From a virus (Duplodnaviria > Heunggongvirae > Uroviricota > Caudoviricetes), in IMG/VR virus record IMGVR_UViG_2872698443_000004, positions 1-51,075 of that record: 51,075 nt of DNA; one strand, given 5' to 3'. Shown in pieces: positions 37,455 to 51,075 of the stretch (positions are counted from its first letter, which is position 1; every line of letters starts with the position of its first letter). The notes under the pieces were generated by a model. It did not search any database, was not told where the DNA came from, and saw only the letters and a list, made by a program, of their open reading frames with translations. Both the position numbers and the translations under genes were made by a program.

Positions 37455-38653
37455 TGGCTCTGAACCTTGATTCTCTCGGTTTATCTGCAAAGGTAACCGT
37501 GGAGGGGATCAGTGCGCCTGATTATCAGACGATACTCAGCACCCTGATTAGCTATTTTCAGCAGATTTATGGCAGTGATGCCTACCTCGAACCGGACAGC
37601 AAAGACGGCCAGATGGTGGCTCTGATGGCGCTGGCGATTCATGATGCCAATAATACTGCGATAACTGTCTACAACTGTTTTTCACCGGCAACCGGCTATG
37701 GGGCTGCACTGACCAGTAACGTGAAAATAAATGGTATTTCACGTAAAGGCGCGACGAACTCTACGGTTGATTTGCTTCTTACAGGAACTGCCGGAACAAC
37801 CATCATTAATGGCAGCGTGAAAGACAGTAATAATGTGATATGGCGTTTGCCTGCTTCAGTGGTGGTCGGCGTGGATGGTACAGTGATGGTGACCGCAACA
37901 TGTTCCGTCAGTGGTGCAGTGGCGGCGCTGGCTGGAACTATCACTGAAATTAATACGCCAACCCGTGGCTGGGTTTCGGTAACTAATCCTGCTGCGGCTA
38001 CTGTTGGCTCTCCGGCAGAAACTGACGCGGAGTTACGTATCCGCCAGTCACAAAGTGTTGCGTTGCCATCAATAACCCCATTTGAAGCACTGGATGGTGC
38101 TGTTTCTAATGTTACCGGTGTAACCCGCCACAAACTCTATGAAAACGATACTGGTTCGGAGGACGGTAACGGGTTACCGCCACACTCTGTTGCTGTAATT
38201 GTGGATGGCGGTGATGTGACGGATATTGCTCAGGCTATCAGAGGGAATAAAGGCCAGGGGACAGCCACTCACGGTACAACATCCGTTACGGTTCCGGATA
38301 AATACGGCAATCCCCATGTAATCAAATTCTCGCGTTCCAGTGATGTGCCTGTTTATGCCCTGATTAAATTAAAAGTTTTTACGGGTTATACCTCACAGAT
38401 AGGGCAGCAGATCCAGCAGGCTATTTCCGACTATATCAATAGTCTGACGATTGGTGATTCGGTCCTTTTAAGTCGCATTTACTCACCGGCGAATCTTGGC
38501 GTGGTGAGTGGCGGGAATGCACGCTATTACGATATTCAGGAACTGACGATTGGGAAATCCCCGGGGGCTTTGTCGTCATCAAACATTGATATCAGATACA
38601 ACGAATCTGCGTCCTGTACACCGGAAAATATCGTTATAACGGTGGAGTCATGA
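37454..38653 (+). CDS. Baseplate J-like protein
   Basis: 399 aa, synteny. Confidence 0.55.
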   Translation: MALNLDSLGLSAKVTVEGISAPDYQTILSTLISYFQQIYGSDAYLEPDSKDGQMVALMALAIHDANNTAITVYNCFSPATGYGAALTSNVKINGISRKGATNSTVDLLLTGTAGTTIINGSVKDSNNVIWRLPASVVVGVDGTVMVTATCSVSGAVAALAGTITEINTPTRGWVSVTNPAAATVGSPAETDAELRIRQSQSVALPSITPFEALDGAVSNVTGVTRHKLYENDTGSEDGNGLPPHSVAVIVDGGDVTDIAQAIRGNKGQGTATHGTTSVTVPDKYGNPHVIKFSRSSDVPVYALIKLKVFTGYTSQIGQQIQQAISDYINSLTIGDSVLLSRIYSPANLGVVSGGNARYYDIQELTIGKSPGALSSSNIDIRYNESASCTPENIVITVES

Positions 38654-39330
38654 GCAAATACACCGAACTGATCACGAACTACCACGCCACCAAACCTAAA
38701 TTTCTTGCACATGTTGATCTGATGACCCGGCCGCTTATTGATGTTGCGGCTGCCACCAGAGGGCTGATTACTGCATTTGATATTGACTCTGCGGTTGGTG
38801 TGCAACTTGACATTCTTGGATTGTGGATCGGACGTAGCCGTGTTGTCAGCCAGCCTATCTCAGGTGTCTATTTCAGCTGGGATACCGACGGGCTTGGATA
38901 TGATCAGGGTGTATGGCAGGGGCCATACGATCCTGATTCCGGATACATGTACCTCAGCGATGAAACTTATCGTGTCATCCTTAAAGCGAAGATTGCGATT
39001 AATAACTGGGACGGACGGAATGATTCGCTTCCAGCAATTCTTGACGCGGCGACAGCAGGATCCGGGCTGCGAATGCAGATCGTCGACAACCAGGACATGA
39101 CGATATCGGTCTGGGTCTTTCCCGATAATGATATTTCAGATGTATCGCGTGAGTTAATTGCTGCAATTAAACAGGGATATCTCACAGTAAAAGCCGCCGG
39201 TGTGTGGGCGGGCGGCATTGAAACACCTTCGGTGGAAGCCCCATCGGAAGGCTCAAAATTTTTTGGTTTTGATATGGATAACGAATACATCGATGGGTTC
39301 GATGTTGGAGCATGGGGGACAATACTCTAA
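38650..39330 (+). CDS. Tail protein (gp48 / P2 gpI-like)
   Basis: 226 aa, synteny. Confidence 0.5.
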   Translation: MSKYTELITNYHATKPKFLAHVDLMTRPLIDVAAATRGLITAFDIDSAVGVQLDILGLWIGRSRVVSQPISGVYFSWDTDGLGYDQGVWQGPYDPDSGYMYLSDETYRVILKAKIAINNWDGRNDSLPAILDAATAGSGLRMQIVDNQDMTISVWVFPDNDISDVSRELIAAIKQGYLTVKAAGVWAGGIETPSVEAPSEGSKFFGFDMDNEYIDGFDVGAWGTIL

Positions 39331-40364
39331 TGGCAACAAACAACTTTAAACCGTTCGCGACAGCGGCAAATGCTAACGTGACGGCCCAGGCTGACTGGGA
39401 AGCGCTTCCGGCTCTACTCTCTGGTTTCATGGCAGGAAAAGCATCCAGTGCGCAGGTAAACAAAGCCATTCGACAGGCCAGCTTTATTGCGGCAGCGCTT
39501 GCGCAGTACACAGCCAACAAAAGTGGGCTGGACGTGCTTGATGATGGTGACCTGAACGGCTTTATCTCCAAAATGGGAACCGCTTTTGGGAAGGATTTCC
39601 AGGCACTTGATGCCACGCTGACGGCATTGGCAGGGCTGGCAACCGGTGAAAATAAACTCCCGTATTTCACTGGAAATGATACAGCAGCGCAGACTGATTT
39701 AACTTCTGTCGGCCGCGACATTATTGGTAAAAGCACTATTGCTGACATTCTCACATACCTTGGTTTACCGGAATTACTGAACCTGAAGAGAGATAAGACA
39801 GATAACAGATTCTCGACTTTCGTGTTTGAGTCTGGCAGGCCAGAGGATAGTCTTTGGCTGGCATATGATGAACAGAAGAAACAATTTGCTATCGCTTTTA
39901 AAGTCGACGGTGCCGCAAAATACGTATATCTGCAAAACAAAGGAGGAAGTCTTGCTCTTGAAGAACAGGTAACGGCGCAGGCAATACTGACAAAACTGCT
40001 TCAGGTTGATGGTTCCGGGTCAGGGCTTGATGCCGATTTGGTGCGCGGGCTACCTGCTGATTTTGGTAGTTCACCGTCAACTAATGGATATCAGAAGTTA
40101 CCGTCCGGCATGATTATACAGTGGGGGATGTCAGAGGTTACACCAACGGATGTCTACGTAAAATTCCCGGTGGCTTTCACAAGACCACCACTGTTTGTCG
40201 GCGAGTCTTCGCCGGGCGGCGGACAAACGACATCAGTGTGGACAGCTAATGCTATAACGAATGTCGGATTTAATGCCACACAGATTTGCGTGTTAAGCAA
40301 CACATCAGACAGAGTGCTCCTTCCCGATAATAACGCCACCACCTGGCTAGCGATAGGATTTTAA
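39312..40364 (+). CDS. Tail fiber protein
   Basis: 350 aa, directly upstream of tail fiber assembly gene. Confidence 0.6.
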   Translation: MGDNTLMATNNFKPFATAANANVTAQADWEALPALLSGFMAGKASSAQVNKAIRQASFIAAALAQYTANKSGLDVLDDGDLNGFISKMGTAFGKDFQALDATLTALAGLATGENKLPYFTGNDTAAQTDLTSVGRDIIGKSTIADILTYLGLPELLNLKRDKTDNRFSTFVFESGRPEDSLWLAYDEQKKQFAIAFKVDGAAKYVYLQNKGGSLALEEQVTAQAILTKLLQVDGSGSGLDADLVRGLPADFGSSPSTNGYQKLPSGMIIQWGMSEVTPTDVYVKFPVAFTRPPLFVGESSPGGGQTTSVWTANAITNVGFNATQICVLSNTSDRVLLPDNNATTWLAIGF

Positions 40365-40366
40365 TT

Positions 40367-40801
40367 ATGGATATGTGCTTCTCAGCCACAACGTTGGCGT
40401 TTTATCCTCTGGATATGAAAGACGGCTATATCGCCGCCGGAACATGGCCGGATGATATCGTTAAACTGACGGATTCAGAGCGTGATAAATACTGGATGAA
40501 ACCGGCTCCGGAAGGAAAAGAACTCGGCAGTGTCAAAGGTCGACCTGCCTGGGTGAATGTCACTCTGCCTACCCATGAGGAATTGGTGCATCAGGCGGAA
40601 GTCAAAAAAGTATTTCTGATATCAGAAGTGAAATCGGAAACAGAGATGCTACGGACAAGACTGGCGCTCAAACGCATCAAGCCAGATGAAGAAGCACTTT
40701 TGAACGCCTGGTTTGATTATCTGGACGCACTGGAACTGGTCGATACTTCCAGTGCGCCAGATATTGAATGGCCTACGCCTCCGGCAGTTCAGGCCAGATG
40801 A
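40367..40801 (+). CDS. Tail fiber assembly protein (Tfa)
   Basis: 144 aa; N-terminal FYPLDMKDGYIAAG and C-terminal LDALELVDTS...WPTPP motifs. Confidence 0.6.
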   Translation: MDMCFSATTLAFYPLDMKDGYIAAGTWPDDIVKLTDSERDKYWMKPAPEGKELGSVKGRPAWVNVTLPTHEELVHQAEVKKVFLISEVKSETEMLRTRLALKRIKPDEEALLNAWFDYLDALELVDTSSAPDIEWPTPPAVQAR

Positions 40802-41510
40802 CATCCGGCGCACATGACAAAACTGAGACACACAAATATTTGCACTGGATTGCAAGGCTTTGTGCTATTCGATAGTTAAGGTGGATCACTCCACCTTTTC
40901 ATCAAGCCAATCCGCCCACCACTGCATCATTTCTCTGCGCTTATCGTGGCAGATGCCTCACTATCACACGGTGATGGTTCATTACTGGTTTGCATAATGG
41001 ATAGAGAACTGCGGATAAAAGATATCCCAAAACCCCAAAATCTCATCTTTAGGATTTGCAGAAAGGGAGGCGTGAACAAATACCTGCGCATGAAAGCGGA
41101 ACTAGTCCAGATGTGATGCTTGTGGTGATCACATACATCATTAACGATGCTCGTTATGGTGAGTTTGATGACTACCCTCTGAAGTGAAAATTGTGTTGTG
41201 TACCAAATTGCGTACCAAACTAAAATCACAAATCATGAAACCCTTGTTCATGGCGGTTCTCAGGGGTGTTGCGCGTAATCGTGAAACAAAAAGGTAGATT
41301 GTTGCTTACCGTCATTCATCATTAGGTTAAATCCGTTATTTCTGCTGTCTGCCAGAGTATCAAATATCACCGTACTAATCAGCTTTAGCGCCACAAGATC
41401 ATGTCAGATAAAAATGAGAGGGTAGTCACATTTTCTTGCACTTTATTCCAGCCAGTTCATAAGTATTTCCGTAAAAAGAACAGCTATTTGAAACTCCTGA
41501 GGGTTTGCTG

Positions 41511-42677
41511 TTGAAACGCCGTCTTATTATTGCTGCTTCTTTGTTCGTTTTTAACTTATCGTCTGGTTTTGCGGCGGAAAACATTCCTTTTTCACCTCAG
41601 CCTCCAGAGATTCGTGCCGGGTCCTGGGTATTGATGGATTACACCACCGGTCAGATCCTCACCGCGGGTAATGAGCATCAACAGCGCAATCCCGCCAGCC
41701 TGACAAAGCTGATGACGGGTTATGTCGTGGATCGCGCTATCGATAGTCATCGCATTACGCCAGACGATATTGTCACCGTGGGGCGCGATGCGTGGGCGAA
41801 AGATAATCCGGTGTTTGTCGGTTCTTCACTGATGTTTTTGAAAGAGGGCGATCGCGTATCGGTACGTGATTTAAGCCGTGGTTTAATTGTGGATTCCGGA
41901 AATGACGCTTGTGTTGCTCTGGCTGACTATATTGCCGGTGGGCAACGGCAGTTTGTTGAAATGATGAACAACTATGCCGAGAAGCTGCATCTCAAGGATA
42001 CGCATTTTGAAACAGTGCATGGTCTGGATGCACCTGGCCAGCATAGCTCGGCTTATGATTTAGCTGTGCTTTCTCGCGCTATCATCCACGGCGAGCCCGA
42101 GTTTTATCATATGTACAGTGAGAAAAGTCTCACCTGGAACGGTATCACCCAGCAAAACCGTAACGGGTTGTTGTGGGATAAAACCATGAATGTTGACGGC
42201 CTGAAAACGGGTCATACTTCTGGTGCCGGGTTTAATCTCATTGCTTCGGCTGTAGATGGGCAGCGTCGTCTCATTGCAGTGGTAATGGGGGCTGACAGTG
42301 CAAAAGGTCGTGAGGAAGAGGCAAGAAAATTACTGCGTTGGGGGCAACAAAACTTTACTACGGTGCAAATTTTGCACCGTGGGAAAAAGGTCGGAACGGA
42401 ACGCATCTGGTATGGCGATAAAGAAAATATCGACCTGGGAACGGAACAAGAGTTCTGGATGGTGCTACCGAAAGCCGAAATTCCACATATCAAAGCCAAA
42501 TATACCCTTGATGGTAAAGAGCTCACCGCGCCAATTAGCGCCCATCAGCGGGTAGGGGAAATTGAACTTTACGACCGTGATAAACAGGTGGCGCACTGGC
42601 CGCTGGTTACCCTGGAATCTGTCGGGGAAGGCGGCATGTTTTCCCGCCTGAGTGATTATTTCCACCATAAGGCCTGA
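41511..42677 (+). CDS. dacD: D-alanyl-D-alanine carboxypeptidase DacD (PBP6b)
   Basis: SLTK active-site motif, signal peptide; likely TTG start 41511 with AGGG SD (track start 41505 also TTG). Confidence 0.85.
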   Translation: MKRRLIIAASLFVFNLSSGFAAENIPFSPQPPEIRAGSWVLMDYTTGQILTAGNEHQQRNPASLTKLMTGYVVDRAIDSHRITPDDIVTVGRDAWAKDNPVFVGSSLMFLKEGDRVSVRDLSRGLIVDSGNDACVALADYIAGGQRQFVEMMNNYAEKLHLKDTHFETVHGLDAPGQHSSAYDLAVLSRAIIHGEPEFYHMYSEKSLTWNGITQQNRNGLLWDKTMNVDGLKTGHTSGAGFNLIASAVDGQRRLIAVVMGADSAKGREEEARKLLRWGQQNFTTVQILHRGKKVGTERIWYGDKENIDLGTEQEFWMVLPKAEIPHIKAKYTLDGKELTAPISAHQRVGEIELYDRDKQVAHWPLVTLESVGEGGMFSRLSDYFHHKA

Positions 42678-42795
42678 CCTTTCTTTTGCAGCAGACTGGC
42701 AGGAGTGCGAGTCTGCTCGCATAATCAACACTCATTCCTTGTGGTTTTAATATTGCAACTATACTGTATATAAAAACAGTGTTAATGGAGGCGTC

Positions 42796-43269
42796 ATGAA
42801 CTACGAGATTAAGCAGGAAGAGAAACGTACCGTTGCAGGTTTCCATCTCGTTGGCCCGTGGGAACAGACGGTAAAGAAAGGCTTTGAGCAGTTGATGATG
42901 TGGGTAGATAGTAAAAATATTGTGCCGAAGGAGTGGGTTGCTGTCTATTACGACAATCCAGATGAAACACCCGCCGAAAAATTACGCTGCGGCACCGTCG
43001 TGACGGTGCCGGGTTACTTTACGCTTCCCGAAAACAGTGAGGGCGTCATTCTGACAGAAATTTCAGGTGGTCAGTATGCGGTGGCGGTAGCTCGTGTAGT
43101 CGGTGATGATTTTGCTAAACCCTGGTATCAGTTCTTTAATAGCCTCTTGCAGGACAGTGCTTATGAAATGTTACCAAAGCCCTGCTTCGAGGTTTACTTG
43201 AACAATGGCGCGGAAGATGGGTACTGGGATATCGAAATGTATGTTGCGGTGCAGCCAAAACATCACTAA
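42796..43269 (+). CDS. sbmC: DNA gyrase inhibitor SbmC (GyrI)
   Basis: 157 aa, GGAGG SD; matches recalled SbmC. Confidence 0.85.
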
Positions 43270-43466
43270 TTCATCTCAGGGCGGTGTGTTAACGCGATGA
43301 CCACTCTTTTTTTGAAAGCGAAAAGAGTAAGATGCGCCTTTCAAATTTTTCGCTCCTGCCGGGAAATTACACTGTTCCCGGTATGTCCGTCGGATAATTC
43401 AGAGGCGCGCCTTCTGGCCGACAGATGAGTTATGAGCGCTTTTAATCTTCATTACGGAGTTTCTGC

Positions 43467-44525
43467 GTGCGTGCCGATAAGTCATTAAGCCCGTTTGAAA
43501 TCCGGGTATACCGCCATTACCGCATTGTGCATGGTACTCGGGTCGCGCTGGCATTCCTGCTCACTTTTCTCATTATCCGCCTGTTTACTATCCCGGAAAG
43601 CACCTGGCCGCTGGTCACCATGGTGGTGATTATGGGGCCAATCTCGTTCTGGGGTAACGTTGTCCCTCGCGCCTTCGAACGTATTGGCGGTACGGTGTTG
43701 GGTTCGATTTTGGGTCTTATCGCTCTGCAACTGGAGTTAATTTCGTTACCGCTGATGTTAGTCTGGTGCGCGGCGGCGATGTTTCTTTGCGGTTGGCTGG
43801 CGCTGGGCAAGAAACCGTATCAAGGATTATTGATTGGGGTGACGCTGGCAATTGTTGTTGGTTCCCCGACAGGTGAAATTGATACGGCGTTATGGCGAAG
43901 CGGCGATGTGATCCTCGGCTCTTTACTGGCAATGTTGTTTACCGGTATCTGGCCACAACGGGCGTTCATCCACTGGCGCATTCAACTGGCGAAAAGTCTG
44001 ACCGAGTATAATCGGGTCTATCAATCTGCATTCTCACCGAACTTACTCGAACGCCCACGTCTGGAAAGCCATCTACAAAAACTCTTGACCGATGCCGTGA
44101 AAATGCGTGGGCTGATTGCGCCCGCCAGCAAAGAAACTCGTATTCCAAAATCGATATATGAAGGTATCCAGACCATTAATCGCAATCTGGTTTGTATGCT
44201 GGAGTTGCAAATCAATGCATACTGGGCCACGCGCCCCAGCCATTTCGTGTTATTGAACGCGCAAAAACTTCGTGATACCCAGCATATGATGCAGCAAATA
44301 CTGCTGAGCCTTGTTCATGCGCTGTACGAAGGTAATCCGCAGCCGGTTTTTGCCAATACGGAAAAATTGAACGATGCTGTGGAAGAGCTGCGTCAGTTGC
44401 TGAATAACCACCATGACCTGAAGGTTGTGGAAACACCAATCTATGGTTATGTGTGGCTGAACATGGAAACGGCACATCAGCTTGAGTTGCTATCGAATCT
44501 GATTTGCCGGGCCTTGCGCAAATAA
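43467..44525 (+). CDS. yeeA: Inner membrane protein YeeA
   Basis: 352 aa multi-TM; GTG start with GGAG SD; synteny sbmC-yeeA-yeeX. Confidence 0.8.
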   Translation: MRADKSLSPFEIRVYRHYRIVHGTRVALAFLLTFLIIRLFTIPESTWPLVTMVVIMGPISFWGNVVPRAFERIGGTVLGSILGLIALQLELISLPLMLVWCAAAMFLCGWLALGKKPYQGLLIGVTLAIVVGSPTGEIDTALWRSGDVILGSLLAMLFTGIWPQRAFIHWRIQLAKSLTEYNRVYQSAFSPNLLERPRLESHLQKLLTDAVKMRGLIAPASKETRIPKSIYEGIQTINRNLVCMLELQINAYWATRPSHFVLLNAQKLRDTQHMMQQILLSLVHALYEGNPQPVFANTEKLNDAVEELRQLLNNHHDLKVVETPIYGYVWLNMETAHQLELLSNLICRALRK

Positions 44526-44696
44526 TTCCTGAACTTCAGAATCATCTTGCTGCTGCTTCGATTCAGCAAGGATAAAGGGTATGATAGTGAAAAGGGATAA
44601 AAGCATTGTCATCTGCGGCAGCTATGAGTAATGTTGGCCCTAACGAATAGCGGTTGCTTAAACGAATCCGACTCTCACATTATCAGGGGTATAAAA

Positions 44697-45026
44697 ATGG
44701 AAACTACCAAGCCTTCATTCCAGGACGTACTGGAATTTGTTCGTCTGTTCCGTCGTAAGAACAAACTGCAACGTGAAATTCAGGACGTTGAGAAAAAGAT
44801 TCGTGACAACCAGAAGCGCGTCCTGTTGCTGGACAACCTGAGCGATTACATCAAGCCGGGGATGAGCGTTGAAGCAATCCAGGGCATCATCGCCAGCATG
44901 AAAGGTGACTATGAAGATCGCGTTGACGATTACATCATCAAAAATGCCGAGCTCTCCAAAGAACGCCGCGATATCTCCAAAAAGCTGAAAGCTATGGGCG
45001 AAATGAAAAACGGCGAAGCGAAGTAA
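44697..45026 (+). CDS. yeeX: YeeX (UPF0265 family)
   Basis: 109 aa from ATG 44697; downstream hairpin GAGGGTTGCC-CG-GCAACCCTC. Confidence 0.8.
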
Positions 45027-45126
45027 TTCCCGTTTTATTCAATGAGGGTTGCCCGGCAACCCTCATTGCTCATTGATTCTTATCTGTGTATCACCGTCAT
45101 CATTCTCATCTGAGAACCTGTCGAAA

Positions 45127-45309
45127 TTAACAACAGCCTTCTTCTGTATGCAGCAAGGCAAAAAGTTCTGTAACTCCATTGTTATTAACTGCACTGGTTA
45201 CTAACACGTTGTGCGCTCCAGCTTCCCGTAACCAACTTTTCACCAAAGATATTTGTTCCATGCTGGCTAAATCTGCTTTGGTTACTACTCCAATGACCGG
45301 GTGATTCAT
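45127..45309 (-). pseudogene. yoeF: EutP/PduV-like GTPase C-terminal fragment (yoeF-like)
   Basis: Only C-terminal ~60 aa (VIGVVTKADLA...) look protein-like; N-terminal part of track ORF is antisense to a transposase remnant. Confidence 0.4.
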
Positions 45310-45368
45310 GGCCCGGTAGGGCGTTTTTACCTCTAATTCCTGCTTCAGCGCTGAGATTCCTGCTTGTT

Positions 45369-45509
45369 GCCGGAAAAGCAGGCACCTGCCGTCTGAACGG
45401 TATCGATCCGGAAGCGTATCTGCGCCATATTCTGAGCATACTGCCGGAATGGCCCTCCAACCGTGTTGACGAACTCCTGCCATGGAACGTAGTTCTCACC
45501 AATAAATAA
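45369..45509 (+). pseudogene. Transposase C-terminal remnant
   Basis: Open frame ending ...GIDPEAYLRHILSILPEWPSNRVDELLPWNVVLTNK; no start or N-terminal part; followed by hairpin. Confidence 0.4.
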
Positions 45510-45923
45510 GCGTCAATACGGTGCTCCGTTGACGCTTACTTTAATCCGTTTTCTGAGCTTAGATTTTTCTGTTCCTACCCAGACCGTGGATTTGGAATTC
45601 ATTTTTTGTCAGGTCAATGCTAATCGTTAAAACGGCCATAACGCACCTCCACTGGAAGGTTTATCAGTAATATCCTACCGTTGCTTCATGGTCGGGGCGT
45701 CCATTCCATTATTATCGGTTTTCCTTTCTGTTTATAAATGAAAACGCCAGCTGTATTCAGGCTGGCGTCAGGGGAAATGAAGCCTGTTGAGTGAGATTCA
45801 CCGGTTCTGGTGCAGAAGCTGCAGATGGCGCAGGGTAAGGACATCTTCTCTTGCCTGCTTAATACAGGACAACAGTGCTGTTTCTGTGGTTAATGGCACT
45901 ATACCCTGCATCACTGCATTGTC

Positions 45924-46118
45924 TTACAGCAACTGGTGAGGGCTGGCATAAGTTGCCGGTGTTTCGGTAGAGTCACGGTCATCCACCACGCGGAGTGAAT
46001 AACCTTTTTCAGCGGCCTTATTAATCAGTTCAGTGATATTAACACCATCAATGTCAACGACAATGTGCCCCATATCCAGCGCCTGTACGTTAACGCTGTC
46101 GGCTTCCAGTGTCATCAT
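45924..46118 (-). CDS. yeeW: YeeW-like protein
   Basis: 64 aa; start overlaps cbtA stop (ATGA). Confidence 0.75.
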   Translation of the reverse strand: MMTLEADSVNVQALDMGHIVVDIDGVNITELINKAAEKGYSLRVVDDRDSTETPATYASPHQLL

Positions 46119-46488
46119 TTCGCCTCCGGATACTTACCCAGGGTAATGTTATTTACCGTTCTGTAATTGTCGCGGGTCATCAGGCCGGTCGCCCTGCGAG
46201 CCCGGAGGATATCGATGCTGTTTATTAACTGAGAGCGGGTACAGGCGCTGAATCCCGGCTGGTCGGTAGCACCAGCGCGTATTTTTCCACGAGAAAGTTC
46301 ACCGCATCACACAGTGAAATGCCTGCCTCAATATGCTGCTCAATCACACGTTCATCGGCAAAAGGTGTGTCATTCAGTGTGAGGCCATAGTGCTGGTCCA
46401 GCAGTCGGGACAGCAGTATCTGCCAGATTTCAACAGGAGACGGGCGAGAACTGGTCGCCTGCCCGGGTAATACAGGTAATGTTTTCAT
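46115..46488 (-). pseudogene. cbtA: CbtA (YeeV) toxin gene, frameshifted
   Basis: N-terminal 73 aa read normally then 14 out-of-frame codons to a stop at 46225; recognisable C-terminus continues in another frame down to 46115. Confidence 0.7.
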
Positions 46489-46576
46489 ACTGAAGATTTT
46501 CCTGATATGCAGATATAAAAATGGAAAAGTGGCGTGGTGAAAACACCAGGCCGTAGCAGAAGGCTATTCTGGAGAG

Positions 46577-46945
46577 TTAATTTTTCATTTCGGGCGTCGG
46601 ATAAACAGCCAGATAAACGTAACCACAACTGCTGAGGGTATCGGCTTTGCAGGTCAGCCCTTTTGCATACAGCGTGACGGTATGCTGATGGCGGGGATTC
46701 AGTTCACCGCTGGTGAGCATGAGTTCCAGTTGTTTCATCAGCAGCGGAAAGGCCTGGTCCAGGTGGTACGCATCTGCATCGCTGAACAGGCCTCTGATAC
46801 CGGCGCGGTCGGCAAGGTAATGCAACCGGTTACCCTCCTGCACCAGACGTGCCCCGAAACAGGGCGTCACGGTGCAGGGCAGCCCCCACCAGGGGCGGTC
46901 GTGATTGTCGTCGGGAAGTGTTGTCCCGGGGAGTGTGTCTGACAC
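46577..46945 (-). CDS. cbeA: CbeA (YeeU) antitoxin
   Basis: 122 aa, intact. Confidence 0.85.
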   Translation of the reverse strand: MSDTLPGTTLPDDNHDRPWWGLPCTVTPCFGARLVQEGNRLHYLADRAGIRGLFSDADAYHLDQAFPLLMKQLELMLTSGELNPRHQHTVTLYAKGLTCKADTLSSCGYVYLAVYPTPEMKN

Positions 46946-47018
46946 GATAAAATCCTTACAGAAAATCGGCTAAGAATGGTCCGGTAGTGGCGATAATTCT
47001 GCTCATCAGAATTCCCAC

Positions 47019-47240
47019 TCAGTTCAGGGTGACGCTCATCAGCCGGACATACGGACCAAAACTGTCCTTACGGCGTTCAGCAAACACGGCCAGCACACCG
47101 GGAATATCCTGCACTTCACGACCGGTATACGCTTCAGCACTGCCGTGCCAGCGGTATTTACCGGTACAGAACGGAAAAAGACGGGATGTCGGATGTTGTT
47201 GGTGAATACGCATGGCTTCACCACGGGTGATAATTTTCAT
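47019..47240 (-). CDS. yeeT: YeeT-like protein
   Basis: 73 aa, synteny. Confidence 0.75.
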   Translation of the reverse strand: MKIITRGEAMRIHQQHPTSRLFPFCTGKYRWHGSAEAYTGREVQDIPGVLAVFAERRKDSFGPYVRLMSVTLN

Positions 47241-47302
47241 AATGGGATACCTCTGAAGACAGAAGATAAAAGTGAAAACAGGTGTGATGTGGTTGTGAAG
47301 GG

Positions 47303-47794
47303 TTAAAGCAGACCATGTTCGGCAAAGGAGAAAACCTGGTTGCCACCGACTATCAGATGGTCCGGCACCCGGATATCCACCAGGCCCAGTGCCTGTACCA
47401 GACGTTCCGTGATAAGGCGGTCTGCCTTACTGGGTGTGACTTCACCGGAGGGGTGATTGTGTGCCAGCACCACGGCAGCGGCATTGTGGTACAGGGCGCG
47501 TTTAATCACTTCCCGGGGATGGACTTCCGTGCGGTTGATGGTGCCGGTAAAGAGGGTTTCACCGGCAATCAGTTGATTCTGGTTATTCAGATACAGCACC
47601 CGGAATTCTTCACGCTCCAGTCCCGCCATGTTCAGAATCAGCCATTCCCGTGCTGCACGGGTGGAGGTGAAGGCCACGCCGGGTTCATGAAGATGGCGGT
47701 CCAGGGTTTTCAGGGCCCGTTGAATGAGGCTGCGCTCGCCGGGCGTCATCTCTCCGGGCAGAAAGGAAAGTTGTTGCATTGTGCTTCTCTCCAT
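47303..47794 (-). CDS. yeeS: RadC-like JAB-domain protein (YeeS)
   Basis: HNHPSG JAMM motif; start may be the internal Met (MQQLSF). Confidence 0.8.
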   Translation of the reverse strand: MERSTMQQLSFLPGEMTPGERSLIQRALKTLDRHLHEPGVAFTSTRAAREWLILNMAGLEREEFRVLYLNNQNQLIAGETLFTGTINRTEVHPREVIKRALYHNAAAVVLAHNHPSGEVTPSKADRLITERLVQALGLVDIRVPDHLIVGGNQVFSFAEHGLL

Positions 47795-48274
47795 TCAGTC
47801 GATGATGCGCATAATGGCGCTGCATTCCGGATGCTGCAGGGCGTAATCCCGCAACCGGTAATAATGGACCGTCATGGCATAATTCTCCGTACGACAGGCA
47901 TGATGACTGTACGTCATCAGACAGGCGGCAATACCGGCGGCTTCCGGGCTCATTTCTGCGCGGTTACCGTTCATGGCATTGAACAGTACCCATGTTTCGT
48001 CATCATCGTCATCCGGTTCGGGTGCCATAAATGCCCCGCCGTTGTTCAGGGTGTACAGATTCCAGATACCACCGCAGTAGTCTTCGCACAGACGGTCCAT
48101 CCAGCCGAAGACACGGGGCTCCAGGGTCACCCACTGTGGAATGAGGCCAAAATGCTGCGGCCAGAAGCTGATGCGCTGTTCATCAGGGACGAGGCTGGCA
48201 ACCAACTGAGGCGGATTATTCTCTGGTGTTGTAGCTGAATAAATTGTGGGGGTATTCTGAGAAACGGTTTTCAT
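47795..48274 (-). CDS. Antirestriction protein (KlcA/ArdB-like)
   Basis: 159 aa with acidic patch EPDDDDDE; usual position upstream of radC-like gene. Confidence 0.65.
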   Translation of the reverse strand: MKTVSQNTPTIYSATTPENNPPQLVASLVPDEQRISFWPQHFGLIPQWVTLEPRVFGWMDRLCEDYCGGIWNLYTLNNGGAFMAPEPDDDDDETWVLFNAMNGNRAEMSPEAAGIAACLMTYSHHACRTENYAMTVHYYRLRDYALQHPECSAIMRIID

Positions 48275-48355
48275 GAGATAACTCCTTAAATAACAAATAA
48301 ATGTGTGTTTTTCAGGAACGAAAGCTGAATGATTCCCTCACTCAGGGAAACGGCA

Positions 48356-49177
48356 TCAGCGCAGGCTCTCCAGCATCGTTTCTGCCATCACCCACAATGC
48401 GCGATTGAGCTTAATGTCGGTATCAATGCTGTGAATGGCCCGGGTATGGATACGTTTTCCTTTTGCACTGCGACCGGAAATCCCGCCTTTCAGCATATTC
48501 TCCTGGATGGTCTGATATGCGCTCCACAGGTCCTTACCGTAATCCTCCCGGCGTCGCGGCGTCAGAATGTCGGCGGTGGTGACGGGCTGATGTTCGTCAC
48601 CATAACGGTAAGTCAGTGCCGCCTGTGCCAGCGCCTGGCGTGCCGGTGGCGGCAGGACCAGCGACTGCATGGCATCACGCTTCTCCTCTATCCGGTCAAA
48701 CACGCCCACCACCTCGTAAGCCCCTTCGATAACTTTCTCCACTACATTTCCCCGGTGTGGAACACGCACTTCCCCCAGAGACTGGCCACAGACGCACCCG
48801 TTCTGGCAGACGAACCTGAAGTAACCCGGCAGCATCTGGTAGCTGGAGGTACCGTCATGAGAGTTGAGCAGAATAATTTCAGGGACATGTTCTCCGTTTA
48901 TCTCTCCGGCCCGCCGCAGACGCAGCATGTGTTTTGTGTATCCCCGGCGGCCCGGGTCGCGCACACGGGTCTGGCAGGCGAAGAACGGCTGAAAGCCTTC
49001 CCGCTGCAGATTTTCCAGGACGGTAATGGTGGGAATGTACGCATACCGTTCACTGCGGGAGGTGTGCCGGTCTTCCCCAAAAATACTGGGTACATGGCGT
49101 ATCAGTTCTTCATGTGTCAGCGGACGGTCACGGCGTATCTGGTTTGCAGCATAACCAAAACGACTTGCTAATCGCAT
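48356..49177 (-). CDS. DUF932-like protein
   Basis: 273 aa; synteny with antirestriction/radC cluster. Confidence 0.6.
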   Translation of the reverse strand: MRLASRFGYAANQIRRDRPLTHEELIRHVPSIFGEDRHTSRSERYAYIPTITVLENLQREGFQPFFACQTRVRDPGRRGYTKHMLRLRRAGEINGEHVPEIILLNSHDGTSSYQMLPGYFRFVCQNGCVCGQSLGEVRVPHRGNVVEKVIEGAYEVVGVFDRIEEKRDAMQSLVLPPPARQALAQAALTYRYGDEHQPVTTADILTPRRREDYGKDLWSAYQTIQENMLKGGISGRSAKGKRIHTRAIHSIDTDIKLNRALWVMAETMLESLR

Positions 49178-49221
49178 ACTTTGCTCCTTATCGGTGGTTA
49201 AGATTTACTGGTGCAATAAAT

Positions 49222-49254
49222 GAAAAAAGCCGCGTCTCCCGGAGAAGACGCGGC
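49222..49254 (-). terminator. Rho-independent terminator (minus strand)
   Basis: GCCGCGTCT-CCCGGAGA-AGACGCGGC hairpin with U-tract on minus strand; downstream of secreted-protein operon. Confidence 0.45.
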
Positions 49255-49397
49255 CTGACGGGTGAAATGAATAAGGTTTATTGTCTGAGAGGCCTTTCAC
49301 TGGCGAGCCACGCATTAAGCGGCTTTCCGGTAACAATGGCTGGGGCTGTATTTACCTTTGATATTAATAATGTGCAGAGAAACGCATGGTTTACTCC

Positions 49398-49808
49398 TTA
49401 GATTTTAAGTTTGTCCTGGGCTACAACGACAGGTTTTCCGGATGTGTCGATGACTCCTACCGTCGGTACGCCATTTTTGATTTCGAAGAACGGTTTGTTG
49501 CTACCTGAGCACAGTTGATTGTCCCCGTATTCAATCATTTGTGCTTTCCCGGTTTTCAGGTTAACTACCGAGACAGTGTAGTCGTAGCACCAGGCACCAC
49601 CACGTTCAAGCACGAAAACATAGCTGTTATCTTTATAGTTGAACTGATTCTTTGTCTGGCAATTCATACCGTCAATTTCGGTACAGGAAAACGCTTCTGT
49701 AGTATTAACGTATTTGATGTTATTTGGCAGTTTTACTTGTTTCGCAGTAGCGAAGACAGAGAACAGAATAGTTACAGCAACGAGTAAAGTTTTGATAAAA
49801 GTTTTCAT
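49398..49808 (-). CDS. Hypothetical secreted protein (136 aa)
   Basis: Signal peptide MKTFIKTLLVAVTILFSVFATA; four Cys; AT-rich. Confidence 0.55.
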   Translation of the reverse strand: MKTFIKTLLVAVTILFSVFATAKQVKLPNNIKYVNTTEAFSCTEIDGMNCQTKNQFNYKDNSYVFVLERGGAWCYDYTVSVVNLKTGKAQMIEYGDNQLCSGSNKPFFEIKNGVPTVGVIDTSGKPVVVAQDKLKI

Positions 49809-49823
49809 GATAGACTCCTTAAA

Positions 49824-50312
49824 TTAGTTAACCGCAGCTACGTAGTTTTTCACCAGATACGCGAATTCATGCACGCCAATTTCACCGAACCAAACCAGGT
49901 AGGCCGGGTCATCTAAACCAAAGTAACGGTAGCCAACAACTTCATGGGTTTTTGGGTTATAGAGTGTTACGATAAAGTCCCAGCCGCAGGTATTGGCTTT
50001 GCAACCGTCGCCCTGGAACCAGACTGTACCGTTAATGTTTACTGGCGTGATACCTCCACCAGGGCCATCCATATAGCCGCCTTTACCGAACATGCCGCTC
50101 AGTCCGACCGGTTTTAATGCTTTGTCGATAGCGGCTTTGTAGGTAGCGTCACCTTCGTACAACTCGTACGTTGATGGACACGCTCCAGGTTGTTCAGCCC
50201 AGGCTTCCGGGTTACAACTAAGAGCTTGTTTTACGGTAGCCGCTTCTGCGTTAAAGTTAAAGCCCGTGAACAGAACCGCCAGAAATAACATAAGGGTATG
50301 TAAACGTTTCAT
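49824..50312 (-). CDS. Hypothetical secreted protein (162 aa)
   Basis: Signal peptide MKRLHTLMLFLAVLFTGFNFNAEA; Gly-rich, several Cys; AT-rich. Confidence 0.55.
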   Translation of the reverse strand: MKRLHTLMLFLAVLFTGFNFNAEAATVKQALSCNPEAWAEQPGACPSTYELYEGDATYKAAIDKALKPVGLSGMFGKGGYMDGPGGGITPVNINGTVWFQGDGCKANTCGWDFIVTLYNPKTHEVVGYRYFGLDDPAYLVWFGEIGVHEFAYLVKNYVAAVN

Positions 50313-50614
50313 TGTAAATATTCTTCCGTTGTAAATGGCGCTGGAAAATTTCTCATCAGTGAAACCTTCCGGAAGTTTCCCCCCTTGTATGATGTATATC
50401 GCCAGTATTTTATTTCATCCCGGCTGTGATTTTTATATTCCCCGGCACGTGCAATAACGCTGACCAGAGATATAAGGCTCATTAATAACTTTACAGGTAA
50501 TTTCATAATTAAATTTCCAGTGAGTGAATTGACAGGTGAGGGGTAAAACTTTCTCTCAGGTAATATATATCTGAAAATATTTTCAATAACACCAGACAGG
50601 AAAAACACCACCAC
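50309..50614 (-). CDS. Hypothetical small protein
   Basis: 101-aa ORF overlapping start of downstream gene; internal Met MKLPVKLLMSLISLVSVIA may be true start; weak SD. Confidence 0.3.
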   Translation of the reverse strand: MVVFFLSGVIENIFRYILPERKFYPSPVNSLTGNLIMKLPVKLLMSLISLVSVIARAGEYKNHSRDEIKYWRYTSYKGGNFRKVSLMRNFPAPFTTEEYLQ

Positions 50615-50682
50615 AGGCGGTGGCGTTTCTTTGGGGCGTCTTTATTTAATCCGGGCCATCGCGTTTCTCAGTGCCAAATCTG

Positions 50683-51075
50683 GGTAATGACTCCAACTTA
50701 TTGATAGTGTTTTATGTTCAGATAATGCCCGATGACTTTGTCATGCAGCTCCACCGATTTTGAGAACGACAGCGACTTCCGTCCCAGCCGTGCCAGGTGC
50801 TGCCTCAGATTCAGGTTATGCCGCTCAATTCGCTGCGTATATCGCTTGCTGATTACGTGCAGCTTTCCCTTCAGGCGGGATTCATACAGCGGCCAGCCAT
50901 CCGTCATCCATATCACCACGTCAAAGGGTGACAGCAGGCTCATAAGACGCCCCAGCGTCGCCATAGTGCGTTCACCGAATACGTGCGCAACAACCGTCTT
51001 CCGGAGCCTGTCATACGCGTAAAACAGCCAGCGCTGGCGCGATTTAGCCCCGACATAGCCCCACTGTTCGTCCAT
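50683..51075 (-). mobile_element. IS1, second copy (partial, runs off window end)
   Basis: Same terminal repeat and sequence identical to first copy over 393 bp; same orientation. Confidence 0.9.
50698..51075 (-). CDS. insB: IS1 transposase InsB (truncated by window end)
   Basis: Identical to InsB C-terminal 125 aa of first copy. Confidence 0.85.

Follow-up and report, generated by a model that had tools for sequence, protein, structure and literature searches.

The locus examined here raises two questions: how the toxin gene of a type IV toxin-antitoxin pair came to be interrupted next to an intact antitoxin gene, and whether the product that is left still acts as a toxin. In the window (the whole 51,075-nt stretch of DNA that was analysed), cbtA carries a one-base deletion beside an intact cbeA. 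Our findings favour a model, to which we assign a probability of about 0.85, where G221 of cbtA was lost in an ancestor and the allele inherited, with a toxin product that is most likely a non-functional remnant (a pseudogene) and an antitoxin gene that stayed intact. An ancestral strain would have lost a single G in codon 74, and inheritance together with recombination would then have carried the allele into much of the E. coli and Shigella population. From an unchanged start codon and ribosome-binding site, translation would yield 73 native and 14 unrelated residues before a stop; the product, deprived of the conserved C-terminal third (Arg74, Asp76, the IDILRARRATGL helix and the helix that follows), would most likely be non-functional.

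The locus and its lesion

The features of the locus, all on the minus strand, are as follows.

46115..46488, minus: cbtA (yeeV) pseudogene, 374 nt, the frameshifted toxin gene of the CP4-44 type IV toxin-antitoxin pair; 100% identical to DNA called "cbtA, frameshifted" by PGAP
46225..46488, minus: truncated cbtA reading frame of 87 aa, made of CbtA residues 1-73, a 14-aa aberrant tail and TAA; covers Pfam PF06755 positions 1-73 of 112 (E 3e-37)
46268..46269, minus: deletion junction; by alignment, the missing G is G221 of K-12 cbtA, the second base of the Arg74 codon CGT
46115..46264, minus: out-of-frame remnant encoding CbtA residues 76-124 (DQPGF...GKYPEAK, then stop); covers PF06755 positions 76-112 (E 7e-13)
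46489..46576, minus: intergenic region between cbeA and cbtA, identical to K-12; a Shine-Dalgarno-like motif, AGGAAA, precedes the ATG of cbtA
46577..46945, minus: cbeA (yeeU), intact antitoxin gene, 122 aa, 121/122 identical to K-12; covers PF06154 positions 1-100 of 101 (E 4e-53)
45924..46118, minus: yeeW, 64 aa, 63/64 identical to K-12 YeeW; Pfam match to DUF5983_N only
47019..47240, minus: yeeT (DUF987), by Pfam
47303..47794, minus: yeeS (RadC-like JAB domain), by Pfam
47795-49177, minus: an antirestriction (PF03230) gene and a DUF932 gene, upstream of yeeS as in strain E2863

Downstream of yeeW lie yoeF/yoeD remnants, tmaR (yeeX), yeeA, sbmC and dacD. Compared with K-12 and E2863, the window shows the CP4-44 context yeeS-yeeT-cbeA-cbtA-yeeW beside yoeF, tmaR, yeeA, sbmC and dacD; judged by this gene order, the locus is the CP4-44 cryptic prophage or island at its normal chromosomal position. 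The closest described counterpart is the CP4-44 pair of K-12 MG1655, cbtA/yeeV (b2005) and cbeA/yeeU (b2004), which stands in the same order (yeeS, yeeT, cbeA, cbtA, yeeW, yoeF, tmaR, yeeA). The two loci share 373 of 375 nt of cbtA, 121 of 122 residues of CbeA, 63 of 64 of YeeW and an identical intergenic region. They differ upstream of yeeS, where the window has the antirestriction and DUF932 genes and K-12 has yeeR and flu (Ag43), and in cbtA itself, which without G221 runs for 87 codons instead of 124 and also carries A12T.

In the window, cbtA extends from an ATG at 46488 to a TGA at 46117..46115, so that its 374 nt are one short of the 375 (125 codons) of the intact gene. Aligned to K-12 b2005, it shows two differences only: G34A, which gives A12T, and a single gap at G221, by which the K-12 codons GTG CGT ACC become GTG C-T ACC. 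The junction context is CTGGTGC[G]TACCG, where the missing G is flanked by C and T with no homopolymer; the motif GTGCTACCGACC occupies 46272..46261 in the window, and the intact, G-bearing form of the site is GTGCGTACC. Past the gap, the remnant at 46115..46264 has zero differences from K-12 over 150 nt, and the native TGA overlaps the yeeW ATG (46118..46116) as ATGA. The initial annotation had described a toxin frame that shifts and stops after 14 aberrant codons, as is indeed seen (73 native codons, 14 more and TAA), and a C-terminal coding sequence that continues in another frame down to the ATGA overlap with yeeW, which we read at 46264..46115. Its placement of the shift at 46245-46255 needs correction: that interval lies inside the aberrant tail, some 15-20 nt from the actual deletion at 46268/46269. 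The deletion of a single base, which the initial annotation had proposed, is now borne out by alignment to K-12 and to three other intact CP4-44 alleles.

These three alleles (WP5-W18, SE15 and AVS0051) come from a panel of 12 aligned alleles, from whose variable-site listing the divergent paralogue-type loci of IHE3034 and ETEC4085 were omitted, and all three have G221. Since other alleles carry the G, and since the family is conserved in the native frame beyond codon 74, the intact state is taken as ancestral and the window allele as a deletion.

Single-base insertions and deletions are a common class of sequencing and assembly error, and this is the sole point in favour of an artefact that would hide an intact gene. 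The earlier worry was a miscounted homopolymer; yet the site has none, the missing base lying between C and T. The identical junction, moreover, recurs in 1504 independently produced records of complete genomes and in Shigella flexneri, and it is found on two linked haplotypes, G34 and A34. We reject a sequencing error on account of the non-homopolymer site and the 1504 exact junction matches, and regard its chance as next to nil.

An inherited and widespread allele

Many complete genomes in RefSeq, of cattle, human, bird, pig and water origin, carry the full 374-nt allele at 100% identity. With a 61-nt probe across the junction, exact matches were obtained in 1504 RefSeq records, to be set against 5426 complete E. 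coli genomes; intact alleles align to this probe over 62 nt at 98.4%, and the corresponding intact K-12 62-mer has exact matches in 1814 records. Carriers of the deletion include O157:H7, O111, ETEC O6:H16 and O25 strains, and among GTDB species representatives the sole match is S. flexneri SFBU0723. In every carrier inspected (E2863, O157:H7 PV15-279, ETEC TW10598 and A3176), PGAP records "cbtA ... frameshifted" with a pseudogene flag, and cbeA and yeeW are intact alongside. The copy of E2863 (EL381_RS12885, "cbtA, frameshifted") is identical to the window over all 374 nt, and that of O157:H7 PV15-279 (ECpv15279_RS14500) has the deletion and the neighbours seen in the window. The allele is thus an ordinary inherited one, which more than a quarter (at least 28%) of the complete E. 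coli genomes share and for which a pseudogene annotation already exists. As a feature the locus is known, namely the CP4-44 cbeA/cbtA locus with a database-annotated toxin pseudogene allele; our literature searches returned no publication on the G221 frameshift allele of cbtA.

The deletion occurs on both haplotypes at position 34: G34 (Ala12) in O157:H7, A3176 and S. flexneri, and A34 (Thr12) in the window, E2863 and TW10598. In a public protein collection, the 87-aa products with A12 and with T12 are each found on at least 1000 contigs. Outside a repeat the same base is unlikely to be deleted twice, and we therefore favour, as the simplest reading of its spread, an allele that arose once and was then handed on by descent and recombination.

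The paralogues YkfI (CP4-6) and YpjF (CP4-57) belong to the same Pfam family as the window cbtA, and 87-aa products are also found on YpjF/YkfI-like backgrounds. Some of these variants carry the G221 deletion: its characteristic tail is seen on P0020, P0024 and P0039, alleles with a YpjF/YkfI-like N-terminus (MNTLPDTHVREAS...), whose chimeric sequences suggest that cbtA paralogues have recombined or undergone gene conversion. Others (P0012, P0013 and P0048 among them) have a separate loss in an A5 run. This second class of 87-aa products lacks one A of the run at codons 68-69 (window equivalent approximately 46282-46286), is found mostly on YpjF/YkfI-like backgrounds, and comprises P0012, P0013, P0016, P0048, P0053, P0055, P0065 and P0078. 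Such A5-run frameshifts may either have inactivated these genes independently or reflect sequencing errors in a homopolymer; their independent occurrence with the same 87-aa length suggests, at the level of sequence, that toxin decay recurs in the CbtA family.

Beyond correct annotation, the individual finding has little weight: the window strain has no full-length CbtA and an orphan-like CbeA, like at least 28% of complete E. coli genomes. It does bear on how such loci are counted. The naming of the 87-aa product is inconsistent, since in GenBank it is often called "toxin of the YeeV-YeeU system" or "CbtA" with no flag, whereas RefSeq/PGAP gives it as frameshifted. Censuses of toxin-antitoxin systems by name or Pfam match will over-count functional CbtA as a consequence of the many unflagged 87-aa GenBank records. 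The physiology of K-12 CbtA is not transferable to O157:H7, O111, many ETEC and S. flexneri at the CP4-44 locus.

Consequences for the toxin

By homology, and with the DNA identity to K-12 given above, the window cbtA falls within PF06755. The continuous frame of about 124 codons over the whole domain is interrupted by a stop at codon 88: the 112 positions of Pfam CbtA_toxin are split into 1-73, within the reading frame, and 76-112, out of frame, so that positions 74-112 are lost and about 65% of the domain is kept. R15 and F65 are retained in the 87-aa product, and the C-terminal segment with R74, D76 and the IDILRARRATGL helix is encoded out of frame only. On sequence grounds, the window cbtA is a family member by descent, a gene remnant, and does not encode full-length CbtA. 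The toxicity that defines an active CbtA is a block of division and elongation, with lemon-shaped cells as the result.

What was removed can be gauged from the rest of the family, which is small: a search of 1.84 billion representatives gave 222 matches, many of them fragments. Among 22 aligned full-length members, the mean frequency of the top residue is 0.66 in the region 74-103, versus 0.72 in the core and 0.43-0.50 at the two termini; residues R74, D76, D92, I93, A96, A99, G101 and L102 are conserved in at least 80% of them. No solved structure resembling the CbtA family was found by sequence (best E 0.12) or by fold (best E 1.2). In the AlphaFold model of P0044, a close homologue that is intact (pLDDT 83, pTM 0.75), helices span 18-34, 46-54, 59-70, 91-101 and 106-116, the IDILRARRATGL helix being 91-101. 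According to the secondary structure of this single model, the truncation takes away the helices 91-101 and 106-116 (two of five) and the connecting segment. With Pfam positions 74-112, a conserved motif near the C-terminus and two of the five predicted helices gone, loss of CbtA toxin function is likely, as judged from the missing conserved C-terminal third of the domain. Substitutions in the carriers agree with relaxed constraint: the deletion is accompanied in some of them by D40N (418 contigs), L38M, R47C or R15H, at near-invariant positions or known contact residues. Against the loss of function stands the 3' out-of-frame part, which shows no extra decay relative to K-12; its approximately 150 nt carry little information.

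The same perfect preservation of the downstream native frame relative to K-12 could be taken as a sign that the two parts are still joined, through programmed -1 ribosomal frameshifting or transcriptional slippage that would supply full-length CbtA at a low level. Programmed frameshifting is a matter of speculation in a recent paper, though for the adjacent DUF5983 gene and not for cbtA (PMC13294457). No slippery heptamer of the X XXY YYZ type is present anywhere in frame 0 of the 87-aa reading frame, however, and the stretch from the deletion to the stop is free of homopolymers. Intact one-frame alleles, in turn, are common (the 1814 exact matches) and represent the family norm, which makes the split gene the derived state. 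With no slippery heptamer in frame 0 and no run at the site, we reject a programmed frameshift and hold it to be highly improbable.

We also considered an internal start from which the C-terminal part would be made separately, and reject it on limited evidence, from a check of ATG starts. No minus-strand reading frame of at least 25 aa ending at 46115 is listed; the remnant frame has a stop upstream, and its only Met (in GLMTRD) is 21 codons from the end.

A more serious alternative to a non-functional remnant is that the 87-aa fragment is itself an attenuated or altered toxin, for example an inhibitor of FtsZ only, or a decoy, in which case the pair would be modified and the retention of cbeA explained. 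In CbtA, substitution of R15 abolishes MreB binding and substitution of F65 abolishes FtsZ binding (PMC5624674). Both residues lie in the fragment, whose start codon, ribosome-binding site and upstream intergenic region are identical to K-12. In addition, the allele is very common, and its reading frame stays at 87 aa in thousands of contigs. C-terminal truncations of YeeV are also said, in work by Tan et al. in 2011, to have still caused cell elongation or filamentation. Thus, a product with helices 1-3, R15 and F65, made from an unchanged cbeA-cbtA operon, might act as an attenuated or single-target inhibitor of the cytoskeleton or as a decoy; our literature searches found no experiment on the G221-deletion allele. 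Several of these points have a simpler account. The constant length follows from the same stop in the shifted frame and the high frequency from descent, while the carriers tolerate D40N, L38M and even R15H, the last at one of the two binding residues. The predicted loss of two of five helices, together with the best-conserved C-terminal motif and all but about 65% of the Pfam domain, also argues against activity. Altogether we judge a modified but working pair unlikely, and the specific proposal of an attenuated or single-target inhibitor or a decoy about equally so. If it were true, the type IV pair would be functionally remodelled, and not dead, in a quarter of E. coli, O157:H7 and Shigella among them.

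The retained antitoxin and the decay of the island

The initial annotation had also called the cbeA antitoxin intact, and so it is: of 122 aa, 121 match K-12, and Pfam CbeA_antitoxin is covered end to end. The gene adjoins cbtA, 88 nt upstream on the same strand, and given that this spacer is identical to K-12, the start and ribosome-binding site of cbtA are unchanged. The single CbeA difference, G108 in the window versus D108 in K-12, is a K-12 peculiarity, all other panel members having G.

Under the favoured reading, that of a non-functional toxin remnant, the persistence of cbeA calls for an explanation of its own. CbeA antagonises CbtA by stabilising FtsZ and MreB assemblies, not by binding the toxin, and it protects against other FtsZ inhibitors (PMC5624674); the three K-12 antitoxins, moreover, cross-neutralise homologous toxins (PMC5371832). 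Most RefSeq complete genomes carry several cbtA-family copies (median 2, up to 11). It is likely, we infer, that cbeA is kept as a costless gene whose product, acting on FtsZ and MreB, could still counteract the paralogous toxins YkfI and YpjF or other inhibitors of division. Equally, the decay of cbeA may just not have begun. The locus illustrates clearly how, in a cryptic prophage, the toxin decays ahead of the antitoxin.

Other parts of the island are degraded as well. The start of yeeW overlaps the native cbtA stop in the ATGA, so its translational coupling to cbtA would be lost in the window allele. In the related islands of IHE3034 and ETEC4085 the corresponding protein has 163 aa, and the window yeeW covers no more than its N-terminal 64. 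Next to it, those islands then have an intact DUF957 gene (65 aa), of which CP4-44 has only an N-terminally truncated remnant (window 45798-45890, minus). The DUF957 remnant and the short yeeW imply that the 3' end of the island decayed before, or apart from, the cbtA frameshift. A 118-aa reading frame at 45127-45483 (minus) equals K-12 yoeF/yoeD, which PGAP divides into a fragment of the EutP/PduV family (60 aa) and a truncated transposase pseudogene, further debris of the island edge. The gene yeeA is frameshifted in E2863 (L001 4964-6023) and an intact 352-aa reading frame in the window (43467-44525); E2863 and the window thus have a common cbtA allele and different other pseudogenes.

Upstream of dacD (41505-42677), window positions 1-41000 have the sizes and arrangement of reading frames typical of a tailed prophage, and in related genomes the segment matching this part carries tail fibre, baseplate and DUF2612 annotations. 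Positions 38000-51075 are covered to at least 80% by only 10 complete genomes, which makes the prophage junction uncommon.
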